64,000 nucleotides of DNA from Octopus vulgaris (lineage: Eukaryota), in the NCBI GenBank assembly GCA_951406725.2, contig OX597816.1:147188001-147252000 (forward strand). Direction: 5' to 3'. The stretch's first letter is position 1; each line of letters starts with the position of its first letter. The translations under genes were made by a program, and so were the position numbers. Below are positions 38,082-42,857 of the stretch, piece after piece. The notes under the pieces are model-generated. The model was not told where the DNA came from, did no database searches, and saw only the letters and a list, made by a program, of their open reading frames with translations.

Positions 38082-38558
38082 CCTTAAGCTGAGACGATAA
38101 GACGTGTTTTTACTCCTCTCTGCGCCGGTCAGCAGCAAGCTTCACAGCTACATTCGTCGTAATTGACCATCACATATATTCCTGTATATTTGAAACCACG
38201 CTTTTTCCCAACTCGTGAGTAGACTTTTCCTTAACCAAAAACTATTTTCATAACTTTCAAACGACCAAATATTTTCAAACACCTTCTGATAACTAAAGGA
38301 TCACCCACACATTAAAAATTAGAAAAAAAAAAAGAGGGAAAAAAAAGAAAAGAAAAGAAAGATAAAATAACTACAAGCTCATAATTCAAATACAAACTTC
38401 TCAGTATTACAGCAAACATTCTGTACAATCAATTCTACATACTTCTCCTTAAAAAAAAAAAAATAAATAAATAAATAAAATAAAATAAAATAAAATAATT
38501 AAAAGTAATCAACAAAACAAACGAACAAAATAAAATTTAATAAAACATATCAACCAGA

Positions 38559-39767
38559 ATGGCTAGCCACCAAAAATCCAACAAAAACTGGTCTGATAAT
38601 GAAGTCGACGTTCTTATCAACACATGGCATGGCCTTACCGAAACAGAGAGCATAGGTGCTATGTATCTGAACGAAATTGCTAAACGAGCAGTTCACCATT
38701 TGCAAACTCGATCTGAACAGCAGATACAAAGTAAATTAAAACAAATCGAAGTTGCTTTTAAATTAATAAATAAACACTTCGATAAACTGAGATGTGTTTT
38801 CTCTTCGAACGCATCACCGGCGCAACAACAACAACCTCAACAACAACAAACTCAGCGGCAACAACAACAACAACAGCTACAGCAACAACAACAACCTCAG
38901 CGGCAACAACAACAACAGATACAGCAACAACAACAGGATGAACCACTCCTCGATTCATCTACAATGGCTGATTTGCTAAACGAAACGATTGATCCCCCAG
39001 TCATCAGGGTCACACAGCAGGAAGCACCACCCCCTCCTTTCACTGCCCCAGCAGCTCAATCATCATCATTGTCAACACCATCTCCTCTGCTTACTACTAC
39101 TAGTACAACTCCAACTATGTATCGACAAACATCTTTGTCTTGGAATCGACCTCCTCAATCATTACCACTGTCAACATCTCTTCTACCTACTACTACTACT
39201 ACTACAACTACTACTACTAATGCTATCTCAAGGAATTTACCTCCTACAGGTCACAAAGGTCGCCAAAACTTCAACAAACTATCATCTACACCTTTCACAA
39301 CTCACACACACACACGCACCTACACACCCACTCGAAACCCCATCATTTGCCGATATTCTCTTCGCCATAGACTGTGCACTGATAGAGACTGCAAATTCAC
39401 CCATTTACCTGGAACAAAACGCTCTATCCCCACAAACTACAACAGCAACCACCATAATACAACACCACCACAACCACCAATATCTCAAACAAGGAATCCC
39501 CAAATCTGCCGCTATTCCCAGCGAGACAGATTGTGTCTGCACAGGGATTGCCCCTTTACCCATCTCCCGGGGACTCGTCGGACATTTAAAGATAACCACT
39601 CACATAAAAATAGCCGCGGCCACAGTCACCTGCGGTTCCCTAGACAGGAAACAACCTCTTCTTCCTCTTTTTTAGCTATAATGAATCTAGCAAAAGAACT
39701 GGAAAAAAACATCCGAGCTATCACCCACCACCATCCACCACAAATACCCCACTGCACATGCCATTAA
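38559..39767 (+). CDS. LINE A ORF1, 402 aa: Myb/SANT-like N-terminus, polyQ, S/T/P-rich linker, two CCCH zinc fingers
   Basis: NWSDNEVDVLINTW...EIAKR...RSEQQIQSKLKQI...FK fits a trihelix Myb/SANT-like pattern. CRYSLRHRLCTDRDCKFTH and CRYSQRDRLCLHRDCPFTH are both C-x8-C-x4-C-x3-H. Confidence 0.85.
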   Translation: MASHQKSNKNWSDNEVDVLINTWHGLTETESIGAMYLNEIAKRAVHHLQTRSEQQIQSKLKQIEVAFKLINKHFDKLRCVFSSNASPAQQQQPQQQQTQRQQQQQQLQQQQQPQRQQQQQIQQQQQDEPLLDSSTMADLLNETIDPPVIRVTQQEAPPPPFTAPAAQSSSLSTPSPLLTTTSTTPTMYRQTSLSWNRPPQSLPLSTSLLPTTTTTTTTTTNAISRNLPPTGHKGRQNFNKLSSTPFTTHTHTRTYTPTRNPIICRYSLRHRLCTDRDCKFTHLPGTKRSIPTNYNSNHHNTTPPQPPISQTRNPQICRYSQRDRLCLHRDCPFTHLPGTRRTFKDNHSHKNSRGHSHLRFPRQETTSSSSFLAIMNLAKELEKNIRAITHHHPPQIPHCTCH

Positions 39768-40729
39768 AAAGCAATCAAATAAACAAATCACCAAAACAAT
39801 TAAAACCATCCACTCTCGCCTCAACATTTCTGCTTAATGCCCAAGGCATCAGCCCTTCCACCAATACACAAAAATGGAAGATAAGATTCCTGGAGGACTG
39901 GGTCGAGGCCCATCCAAACCACATCCCTTTCTTCGTCCTCACTGAAACCCATCTTAGTGACCTCCACTTGAAAGCCGAGGTGAAAGTTTAAAATTTCAAA
40001 ACCATTCGTGCTGATCGTGCTGGCAGAAGAAAAGGTGGGACTGCCATTTATGTCCATGATTCATTCTCAACAGAAGCCATGAACATATTTTCGAATGGAT
40101 ACTGCGAAGCAGTCGCTGTATTCAGTCAAACCAACAACTTAACAGTAGTTGGGCTCTACAGACAACCCCAAACGCCCCTACCATGCTTCAAGGAATGCCT
40201 CAACAGCATAAAGTGTTTCATTCAGCAGTGTCAACCTGACAACATTTTAATGATGGGAGACTTCAACCTTCCCGGGGTTGACTGGTCTACAAACAGTCTG
40301 CCGCCAGGTTCTTCTCTCTCAACCCCTGACAGGGAGGCAGTGGAATCGCTTCTTGACTTCATGGATGACTTCTTCTTGTCCCAACTGGTACTCGAACCAA
40401 CGAGATGTCACAAAAACGTCTTAGACTTAATTTTCAGCAATCACACTGATACTATCCACAATATTGCAGTGGAGAAAACCCTACTCTCCGACCATGACAT
40501 GGTTCTCTGTGATCTGAGATTTCACTGGCCAAAATGCAAAACAAATGTCATCCCTCCTGTTCATCCATTTGACACTATGGATTTCCACAATGCAAACTGG
40601 GAAGCGATCAATAATGATCTTGCACAAGTCGATTGGTCCTTCACGCACACATACACACCCACTAACATTAAAAAGTCCTGGCAGTCACTTGTAGACACCA
40701 TCACGAATGTGCAAGACACACCCCATTAA
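39758..40729 (+). pseudogene. LINE A copy 2 APE endonuclease ORF with one nonsense change
   Basis: Same as 12017-12988 except AAA>TAA at 39989-39991 and a few substitutions. Its ATG overlaps the ORF1 end by 10 nt. Confidence 0.85.
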
Positions 40730-40815
40730 GATCTGCAAACAAATCTAAGTGTCGAATCCCTAGAAATAGAAAATCTCTCATAAGGAAAATTAAAAGAATC
40801 AACAAAAAGATCAAC

Positions 40816-42771
40816 ATGCTGAAATACTGTCAACAGCAACACACCAACCTGACTGCCATCTCGTCGCTAGAGATTAAAAAACATAAACTCCAAAACAACA
40901 TGATGTCTATCATCAATAGTCAGCGAAGAGCTGAAGAGGCCTGGGCCATTGAGAAGATCAAACTCAATCCCAAAGTGTTCTTTTCATTTGCAAAAAAACA
41001 CAGAGTCACTGGTTCTACTGTTGGCCCTCTGATTGATGAAAATGGTACTCTTCAAGACAATGCCAAAACCATGGGGGAGATATTGCAGAAACAATATTGC
41101 TCTGTTTTCAGCAATCCTGATATGACTGATCTGGGCTGTATCAGTGATGTTACTCCCAAATACACTTTATCGGACATAACATTTGGCGCTCCTGATGTCT
41201 TAGCAGCAATAAAGGAAATGAAGCATAATTCAGCAGTAGGTCCCGATAGGTTCCCTGCTTGTGTCTTGAAGATGTGTCAAAACCAACTTGCACCCCCTCT
41301 AGCCAATCTGTGGCGGAACTCACTGGATGCTGGATATATACCAGAGGACCTTCTATCCCAGTCTGTTGTCCCAGTTTTCAAAAAAGGAAACAAATCGCTT
41401 GCCGTGAATTACCGTCCAATCTCACTCACCTCTCATATCATCAAGGTATTTGAGAGGGTGCTGAGATCGCGTATGACTCACTTCCTTGAGAGGCATAATA
41501 TGCTGAACCCCAACCAGCATGGATTCCGTAATGGGAGAGATTGCCTGACGCAGCTACTGCATCATTTTGATGACATTTTGAGAGCCTTGGGAGCAGGTTC
41601 CAACACTGATGTCATCTACCTTGATTTCAGCAAGGCCTTTGACAGGGTTGATCATAAGAACCTTCTGAGAAAGCTGTCCAATATTGGTATCACTGGAAAG
41701 TTGCTGCAGTGGATCAAGTGCTTCCTGTCTAACAGAACCCAACATGTTGTAGTCGAAGGAGTCAAATCCAGCCCAGCCAAAGTCAGCAGTGGTGTCCCAC
41801 AAGGCACTGTGTTGGGCCCACTTCTCTTCATCATCTACATAAATGATATTACTGATACCATCAAACACAGTAACATCAGAACCTTCGCTGATGACTCCAA
41901 GCTCCAGAAGGTCATCAATGGCGTGGATGACCGAATAAACCTTCAGTCAGACCTACTGGCTGTTGTCCAATGGGCGGAAAAGAATAACATGTTGCTAAAT
42001 GAAGACAAATTTGAACTGATCCACTTTGGAAGGGAGGACGCTCTGAAACTCCCATACTCTCTTCCTTCTGGAGAAATTCTCATGGCATCCAACAACATCA
42101 GAGACCTGGGAGTAACAGTGGACAACAACATAAGCTGGGCTACACATATAAGCAGCAAAGTTGACATGACCCGCAGAATGTGTTCCTGGATTCTCAGAAC
42201 CTTCCAGTCGAGAGATTCCCACGCTATTATCCTTCTCTTCTCCACTTTTGCCCGACCCCACCTTGAATACTGCAGTCCACTGTGGTCTCCCTACACAAAA
42301 CAAAATATTATGAGAATTGAAGCTCCCCAAAGGTCAATCACAAAAAAGATAGATGGCATGTCAGACCTTGACTACTGGGGTAGACTAGAGAAGCTGAAAT
42401 TGTATTCATTCCAACGACGCCGTGAACGCTACATTATCTGTATGATGTGGAAAATATTCCACCAGCACTGTCCGAATGATGTTGGCATCACCTTCAAAAT
42501 GCATCCAAGGCTTGGACCACGTGCCATCCGTCCACAACAAAAATCTAAATCGCATCACATAACGACAATACGGCACAACTATTTCACCTCAATTGGACCT
42601 GCTCTCTTCAACATTACACAAGGGAACGTCAAAAAAGAAACTGACCACACAAAATTCAAGAAGTCTTTGGACAAATTCCTTCAAACAGTACCGGACAAAC
42701 CGCCCACACCCGGATATGTCTCCGCAAACAATAACTCTCTGCTCGAATGGGACTTGGTGCCCAAATCCTGA
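40816..42771 (+). CDS. LINE A copy 2 reverse transcriptase ORF (651 aa, open)
   Basis: [63 protein letters not shown] (CR1/L2-group RT). The frame is also open upstream to at least 40681. Confidence 0.9.
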   Translation: MLKYCQQQHTNLTAISSLEIKKHKLQNNMMSIINSQRRAEEAWAIEKIKLNPKVFFSFAKKHRVTGSTVGPLIDENGTLQDNAKTMGEILQKQYCSVFSNPDMTDLGCISDVTPKYTLSDITFGAPDVLAAIKEMKHNSAVGPDRFPACVLKMCQNQLAPPLANLWRNSLDAGYIPEDLLSQSVVPVFKKGNKSLAVNYRPISLTSHIIKVFERVLRSRMTHFLERHNMLNPNQHGFRNGRDCLTQLLHHFDDILRALGAGSNTDVIYLDFSKAFDRVDHKNLLRKLSNIGITGKLLQWIKCFLSNRTQHVVVEGVKSSPAKVSSGVPQGTVLGPLLFIIYINDITDTIKHSNIRTFADDSKLQKVINGVDDRINLQSDLLAVVQWAEKNNMLLNEDKFELIHFGREDALKLPYSLPSGEILMASNNIRDLGVTVDNNISWATHISSKVDMTRRMCSWILRTFQSRDSHAIILLFSTFARPHLEYCSPLWSPYTKQNIMRIEAPQRSITKKIDGMSDLDYWGRLEKLKLYSFQRRRERYIICMMWKIFHQHCPNDVGITFKMHPRLGPRAIRPQQKSKSHHITTIRHNYFTSIGPALFNITQGNVKKETDHTKFKKSLDKFLQTVPDKPPTPGYVSANNNSLLEWDLVPKS

Positions 42772-42857
42772 ACTGAAAGACTTCACCAGGTGGTGCTATT
42801 AAGTTAGACATGGCCTGGGCACATACTGGCCAAAACCTTTCTAAGTTATTCTAAGTT

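Follow-up and report, generated by a model that had tools for sequence, protein, structure and literature searches.

We analysed a 64,000-nucleotide window of the Octopus vulgaris genome (assembly GCA_951406725.2, contig OX597816.1, positions 147,188,001 to 147,252,000 of the forward strand), in which a long interspersed nuclear element (LINE) of the CR1 group occupies positions 38082-42857 of the plus strand. The first open reading frame (ORF1) of this element, copy A3 of family A, carries a predicted Myb/SANT-like domain ahead of two CCCH zinc fingers, and the element lies in an array derived from TA repeats, as do all the other young CR1-group LINE inserts in the window. An earlier reading of this DNA (the sequence-only reading) had connected the two features, proposing that ORF1 may be an adaptor that binds element RNA through its fingers and TA-repeat DNA through its head. 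Our results show that the architecture is unusual and that insertion into TA arrays is real in the window. The link between the two, however, is made less likely by two further LINE families, B and C, which occupy the same arrays and, like a short interspersed element (SINE) found there, were missing from the earlier account.

Copy A3 is a full-length element with a 5' untranslated region (UTR), ORF1, an ORF2 for an apurinic-type (APE) endonuclease and reverse transcriptase (RT), and a short 3' UTR (Table 1). The intact 402-residue ORF1 with a polyglutamine (polyQ) tract and two C-x8-C-x4-C-x3-H fingers, as described earlier, was confirmed. ORF2 matched the Pfam families PF14529 (E 7e-14) and PF00078 (E 5e-31) and, among solved structures, L1 endonuclease structures at E 2e-5. 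Family A has the N-terminal APE and RT in ORF2 and the separate upstream ORF1 of CR1-group (Jockey superfamily) LINEs, together with 5'-truncated copies that share one 3' end; its tail is short and repeated, and it is free of long terminal repeats (LTRs). The family had also been called young. With 98% identity between its two full-length copies, A1 and A3, the term is fair, but neither copy is intact: ORF2 is broken in both, with A3 showing a stop near 39989 and losing the frame around 40706, and ORF1 of A1 carries a stop and a frameshift. Both A3 breaks were absent from the contigs of 4/4 public runs aligned to the element, which indicates that the defects belong to the window copies and not to the family. 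The frame break at 40706 is found at the matching place in A1 as well, yet is missing from the contigs of other runs; this pattern could stem from a defective master that was mobilised in trans, or from gene conversion between A1 and A3. A segmental duplication as the origin of A1 and A3 was rejected, because their self-match stops at the element ends and the sequence past the arrays differs.

At least half of the element's sequence words were found in 20 of the 24 public runs listed (7 studies, 3 coded organisms); none of the runs listed with these words was an RNA run. In each of three large runs, 13,220 to 16,320 contigs were at least 85% identical to the element, as expected for an abundant and diverse family. 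For O. vulgaris, 13 recently active CR1 families have been reported (PMC13282606).

The earlier statement that TA-derived arrays flank every one of the four family-A inserts on both sides held up. The fraction of TA/AT dinucleotides in the adjoining 30 bp was at least 0.72 in 8/8 flanks, although the four inserts lie in two arrays and are not four independent sites. The same was true of every young CR1-group LINE insert in the window (7/7, families A, B and C), with 14/14 flanks at 0.72 or above. By comparison, 12.0% of the 30-mers outside young LINE bodies are equally TA-rich, a value that falls to 0.8% outside the two clusters of inserts. Among other dispersed repeats, 0/13 matched segments reached 0.7 on either side; the ends of these control segments are not always true element ends (three were inspected by eye). 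When extended, the SINE at 53557-53857, which is among these segments, proved to be TA-flanked. Outside the window, the contig loose ends listed yielded no element-end flanks of family A, a metagenome scan for the family returned one distant match (26%), and its 3' DNA motif was absent from the genome contigs searched.

G or C interruptions confined to one strand give the arrays a polarity, which is equal on both sides of 6/7 LINE inserts. Read in the own sense of the four A copies, the flanking arrays are G/G, C/C, G/G and C/C. Polarity thus continues through the inserts independently of element direction, indicating that the arrays pre-date the insertions. The possibility that the arrays are element-made tails was rejected on the same ground, as polarity ignores element orientation. 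Exact end duplications of 24 bp in C1 and 37 bp in C2, longer than every cross-pair match in their rows, also suggest that the arrays came first.

The sequence-only reading had set the joining of a Myb/SANT-like head to CCCH fingers apart from the modules usual in CR1/L2-group ORF1s; the head appears to be new, but the fingers belong to a widespread type of LINE ORF1. An HMMER search with ORF1 residues 256-402 gave 20 matches at E <= 0.001, and 19/20 have the exact C-x8-C-x4-C-x3-H spacing. Most of these relatives carry clusters of three to four fingers, the last of which corresponds to the finger of family A and, like it, precedes a C-terminal helix. The CCCH ligands are invariant in 16/16 aligned proteins, and the Pfam CCCH families match the fingers weakly (E 0.005-0.2). 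In several relatives the finger cluster is preceded by a helical domain plus a PHD. At E <= 0.05, PHD was matched in 3/20 relatives, chromo/Tudor/MBT in 2/20 and Myb in 0/20, many of the 20 being fragments. In P0003 and P0020, chromo/Tudor/MBT-like domains stand ahead of the PHD, suggesting that the lineage exchanges chromatin-reader heads repeatedly. In L015, a piece of host DNA in a metagenome bin, a CCCH-cluster ORF lies directly upstream of APE-RT (1/41 loci scanned), which indicates that the CCCH family is a LINE ORF1. The L015 ORF1 combines PHD-like cysteines with the CCCH cluster and gave no Myb match, the ORF running off the 5' end of its contig; CCCH-based locus scans beyond L015 found nothing more.

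These LINEs with PHD and a CCCH cluster in ORF1 (P0003, P0005, P0009, P0015, P0019, P0020 and L015) share with family A the terminal finger and the HLxGTxR motif after it, the C-terminal helix and the RT clade. Their fingers number three to four, and most of them have a helical domain plus PHD, with chromo/Tudor added in two, whereas family A has the last finger twice and a Myb/SANT-like head. The two fingers of family A are 34 residues apart and alike at 24/31 residues, and the codon differs at 17 of those 24, which suggests that the finger duplication is old and was kept by selection. As judged by these comparisons, the novelty of the family-A ORF1 is a predicted head swap plus a finger duplication inside an existing ORF1 type. 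By analogy with what is known of the family, the fingers would bind element RNA, and the C-terminal helix is likely an oligomerisation helix.

RT trees were built from 38 rows and 155 columns (L005 and L006 omitted as near-duplicates of L004) and from 27 rows and 311 columns (short or under-30% rows omitted). The rows were host-contaminant LINE elements rather than named references of CR1, L2, Crack, Daphne, Rex1 or Proto2, and 'CR1 group' is used here without a choice among these names. The fragments L007-L041, 35 in number, are eukaryotic LINE sequences that entered prokaryotic genome bins as contamination from the host. Families A, B and C formed one clade with L007 and L015 (support 94/93 with 38 rows; SH-aLRT 95 with 27 rows), and in the 38-row tree D, an old element of the window, and one long-branch row also fell inside it. 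This clade is separate from elements whose ORF1s are of the PHD + RRM-like or esterase-like kind, and the RT of A is 46-48% identical to those of elements with PHD + RRM-like ORF1s. B and C adjoin L015 (96/89 with 38 rows), and from this RT neighbour their ORF1 heads are probably PHD-type. Five RT matches in viral contigs, at 27-33%, were too distant for use.

The Pfam family PF13837 (Myb_DNA-bind_4) matched the whole 402-residue ORF1 at E 1.8e-4 (22.3 bits), residues 1-90 at E 1.3e-5 (25.9 bits) and residues 7-76 at E 1e-5 (26.3 bits); the curated cut-off of 27 bits was not reached by any ORF1 query. For the isolated head it was the sole Pfam family match among 24,736 models, spanning profile positions 2-72 of 89. 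The score fell to 14 bits once helix 3 was removed, indicating that both ends of the head contribute to the match. Language-model features of the head resembled Myb/SANT clusters (0.83-0.88), and 10/10 of its best family-bearing feature matches agreed in family or clan; we take this as a lead only. Two single-sequence models gave three helices at low confidence (pLDDT 65, pTM 0.39). With these models, Foldseek returned no Myb match and the best VIA-align hits (Z 6.8 and 6.4) were to unrelated helical chains, the models being too weak to count. The Myb/SANT head described earlier therefore stands as a prediction, in fold as well as in family. None of the modules of ORF1 types I-IV (CCHC/RRM, transposase 22, PHD, esterase) was matched at E <= 1 in a Pfam scan of the 402 residues.

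No homologues of the head were found in word-index searches with the whole ORF1, residues 1-90 or residues 1-135, nor in Atlas with the whole protein, nor in viral contigs, and the best match among solved-structure sequences had E 0.26. These blank searches indicate neither novelty nor absence. PF13837 was matched in 2/15 contaminated genomes searched. L042 and L043 hold Myb/SANT genes, the one in L043 adjoining what we take from its motif to be a Harbinger-like transposase. A two-sequence profile from the Myb_DNA-bind_4 proteins of L042 and L043 missed the head (347/1,980 scored shuffles equally good), BLASTP gave no match to these proteins, and the alignment was poor. MAFFT rows had hinted that the head might have arisen by divergence from the helical domain that the relatives carry. 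This was rejected, as the profile score was -0.5 with 793/995 scored shuffles equally good. HHalign gave a probability of 0.1% for the head against the helical domain + PHD of the relatives.

The N-terminus might instead be a helical or coiled-coil oligomerisation segment that is Myb-like by composition, in a family that is an ordinary derivative of the CCCH-type ORF1. The sub-threshold Pfam score, feature scores below 0.9 and the long helices of the single-sequence models are consistent with such a segment, but a sole family match at E 1e-5 that covers most of the profile, the need for both ends of the head, and the naming of the same clan by two different methods all speak for a Myb/SANT-like domain. 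We regard the oligomerisation segment as unlikely and the assignment of the head as a Myb/SANT-like domain as highly probable. How such a head bears on target choice is a separate matter. Should it read (TA)n while the CCCH fingers hold the RNA, ORF1 would form a bridge that aims the ribonucleoprotein at TA arrays. The best Pfam match of the head, with the agreeing feature matches as a lead, fits this idea, as do the TA flanks of 4/4 A inserts, including the subfamily at 84% identity, and the conservation of both fingers despite near-saturated synonymous change. Of the tryptophans that we take to be typical of Myb/SANT helices, the head keeps just the first, which counts against the bridge, as does its Pfam score under the cut-off. 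Families B and C and one SINE occupy the same arrays, and B and C group with L015, an element with a PHD-type, Myb-negative ORF1; B and C would need the same head or another route to the same target, which makes the bridge less likely. R2 proteins recognise their target DNA through Myb domains (PMC12503042), and ORF1 is implicated in the targeting of TRE5-A (PMC5006619), so the idea has parallels, but we consider it quite unlikely here. Of the microsatellite targeting proposed earlier, insertion into pre-existing TA arrays is retained on the evidence of polarity and flanks, and the adaptor step is weakened by B, C and L015.

Another possibility is that there is no active targeting at all, and that TA arrays, being abundant, fragile and harmless, receive elements by chance or at breaks, let them survive and grow later. 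The arrays fill 12% of the window and are shared by three LINE families and a SINE, the older element D lies outside them, and the window was chosen for its striking look. However, 14/14 LINE flanks are TA-rich up to the junction against 0/13 for other dispersed-repeat segments, equally TA-rich 30-mers are rare outside the two clusters, and the exact duplications of C1 and C2 suggest ordinary endonuclease-primed insertion within arrays. Passive accumulation is thus doubtful. On balance, it seems somewhat more likely than not that A, B and C have a TA-array preference in common that comes from ORF2 and target structure, accompanied in A by the head swap in ORF1. Because B and C land in the same TA repeats, the Myb-like head is probably not what aims family A at them. 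In other elements the endonuclease has a major role in targeting, and target structure carries weight (PMC1950540).

Several observations weigh against this shared, ORF2-based preference. The seven inserts are confined to two arrays (8857-15118 and 37962-53556), so that independent sites are few; two independent hits at a 12% background give p ~0.014, which also speaks for passive accumulation. Element D has flanks of 0.45 and 0.24, and L007, the nearest outside relative, ends in a short TATAT only (probably a collapsed repeat contig), from which it follows that the TA preference is not lineage-wide everywhere. Family B is flanked by arrays of opposite polarity, and the end duplications of the A copies measure 6-13 bp and do not exceed cross-pair matches except in A3 (13 versus 12). 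The support for grouping B and C with L015 goes down to 84 in the longer alignment (27 rows), and ORF1 of both families is cut off in the window and may have carried a Myb head. Factors besides endonuclease nicking are also reported to contribute to targeting (PMC1950540), leaving room for ORF1.

We propose that family A is a recently active CR1-group (APE-RT) family in a TA-microsatellite-rich invertebrate genome. The ORF1 plan of its lineage would comprise an optional chromo/Tudor part, a helical domain, a PHD, a CCCH finger cluster and a C-terminal helix. On the way to family A, a Myb/SANT-like domain would have taken the place of the N-terminal reader, while the last finger was duplicated and those before it disappeared. 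The fingers would bind RNA of the element and the helix at the C-terminus would oligomerise, as is usual for an ORF1, and the Myb-like head might serve as a loose DNA or chromatin tether standing in for the PHD. The TA preference common to A, B and C may come chiefly from nicking of flexible, TpA-rich DNA by the ORF2 endonuclease, possibly aided by a few base pairs that the A/U-rich RNA tail forms with the target. Insertion would follow ordinary target-primed reverse transcription, and repeated insertion with target duplication could lengthen the arrays and build nested clusters.

The features of the window that bear on the element are collected in Table 1. B and C are about 40% identical to A in ORF2 and 66-72% identical to each other. 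A2 and A1 stand tail to tail over a common array (9494-9884). Over its 15.6 kb, the array at 37962-53556 contains five LINE inserts, which come from three families and lie in both orientations, and it ends with a SINE. It has the form of a nested insertion hotspot and is G-type on the plus strand nearly throughout. Just 5' of B, the segment 43950-44623 has a polarity opposite to its surroundings and an 83-bp exact inverted match to the upstream G-type part, and possibly represents an inversion at or after the B insertion.

Table 1. Features of family A and of the TA-derived arrays in the 64,000-nucleotide window.
Feature	Coordinates	Strand	Remarks
5' UTR of copy A3	38082..38558	+	first base same as in copy A1
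ORF1, 402 aa, intact	38559..39767	+	stop-free
Predicted Myb/SANT-like domain, ORF1 residues 9-73	38583..38777	+	Pfam PF13837, under cut-off
polyQ tract, CAA-rich	38823..38936	+	length differs between A3 and A1
CCCH finger 1, C-x8-C-x4-C-x3-H, residues 264-282	39348..39404	+	
CCCH finger 2, C-x8-C-x4-C-x3-H, residues 317-335	39507..39563	+	copied long ago from finger 1
C-terminal amphipathic helix, SFL..M..L motif	39663..39722	+	common to PHD + CCCH ORF1 relatives
ORF2, APE endonuclease + RT	39644..42771	+	overlaps ORF1 end; broken
3' UTR of A3	42772..42857	+	short tail repeated twice; poly(A) absent
Family A, full-length copy A1	9885..14689	-	98.07% to A3; ORF1 and ORF2 broken
Family A subfamily, 3' fragment A2 (430 bp)	9064..9493	+	84.1% to A3
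Family A, 3' fragment A4 (400 bp)	51782..52184	-	96.8% to A3
Family B, 5'-truncated CR1-group LINE (APE + RT)	44624..47565	+	TA arrays both sides; ~41% to A ORF2
Family C, copy C1, 5'-truncated CR1-group LINE	49609..51535	+	TA arrays both sides
Family C, 3' fragment C2	53025..53206	+	TA arrays both sides
SINE with tRNA-like head	53557..53857	-	TA repeats at both ends
Element D, old decayed relative of B/C	27841..29795	+	outside TA arrays; SINE inserted at 28066-28270
TA-derived array 5' of A3	37962..38081		G-type on + strand
TA-derived array between A3 and family B	42858..44623		G-type until ~43950, then C-type

The minus-strand SINEs at 53557-53857 and ~5377-5558 have the same tRNA-like head and different tails, and the latter adjoins a CAA repeat whereas the former sits in TA repeats. 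At 58002-58585 a SINE of the family found at 28066-28270 and 4694-4939 is repeated three times head-to-tail with a period of 184 bp. The SINE that interrupts element D resembles one of octopus. An L1/Tx1-type remnant (RT + zf-RVT) at 17465-19468 on the minus strand ends next to a CAGA/AGAT repeat (16921-17014) and has apparently lost an internal piece. An intronless ORF with two HMG boxes at 2152-2784, also on the minus strand, is an HMGB-like gene or retrocopy.

Non-LTR elements that target microsatellites or telomeres include TRAS1/SART1, Waldo, Mino and Dong, which belong to the R1, R4 or Tx1 clades and use other repeat units. These elements resemble family A in target-primed insertion into simple tandem repeats. 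In TRAS1 the specificity resides in the endonuclease itself (PMC2868851), and the endonuclease of R1Bm is likewise specific (PMC1950540). R2 resembles family A in joining a Myb domain and zinc fingers in a non-LTR element (PMC12503042), but in R2 both lie within a single protein with RT and a restriction-like endonuclease and read ribosomal DNA, whereas family A has a separate ORF1 and an APE nuclease. The Dictyostelium element TRE5-A comes close to the adaptor idea in that its ORF1 is implicated in target choice, there by protein contact with TFIIIB at tRNA genes and not by a DNA-binding domain (PMC5006619). The sequence-only reading knew of no description of ORF1-based microsatellite targeting, but the general idea of targeting through ORF1 has a precedent in TRE5-A; for the CR1 group, our literature search, with most subscription journals outside its scope, found no title or abstract on a CCCH- or Myb-type ORF1, nor any on CR1-group LINEs in (TA)n. 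The MuTAnT elements also use (TA)n as a low-harm landing site, but are plant Mutator-type cut-and-paste DNA transposons and not LINEs (PMC4486113).

A survey of 448 CR1-lineage elements describes ORF1 types I-V with CCHC, RRM, transposase 22, PHD and esterase modules (PMC4120745, Metcalfe and Casane 2014), and its main text makes no mention of CCCH, C3H, Myb or SANT. The surveyed LINEs share with family A two ORFs, an APE+RT ORF2, 5' truncation, a short repeated tail and a modular, shuffled ORF1, but their ORF1 modules are absent from A by Pfam, and in the RT trees L007 and L015 join A in a clade of its own. We also weighed CR1 subgroup 2 of that survey (type V, PHD) as a place for this ORF1 type, but it is unlikely, since mosquito elements stand in the corresponding supplement column. 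Mollusc LINE clades are treated elsewhere (PMC10294476), and the PHD + CCCH lineage may well be catalogued already in Repbase or Dfam.

The present results extend the print that we found in two respects. One is a CCCH-cluster ORF1 type of the CR1 group whose head is exchangeable (PHD, chromo/Tudor + PHD, or Myb/SANT-like). The other is the occurrence of several CR1-group families in TA-derived arrays, to whose lengthening they may contribute. It is improbable that the Myb/SANT-like domain, which family A would have acquired instead of a PHD reader, reads (TA)n directly. If it does, a LINE ORF1 would be a sequence-specific DNA-RNA bridge, and family A and its cousins would be a motor of TA-array growth. 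Family A with its Myb-like head and families B and C with a probable PHD head, on one target in one genome, form a natural comparison on the role of ORF1 in site choice. If ORF1 aims, it would represent a separable targeting module; if it does not, the TA preference of the endonuclease would still be of interest for microsatellite-rich genomes.

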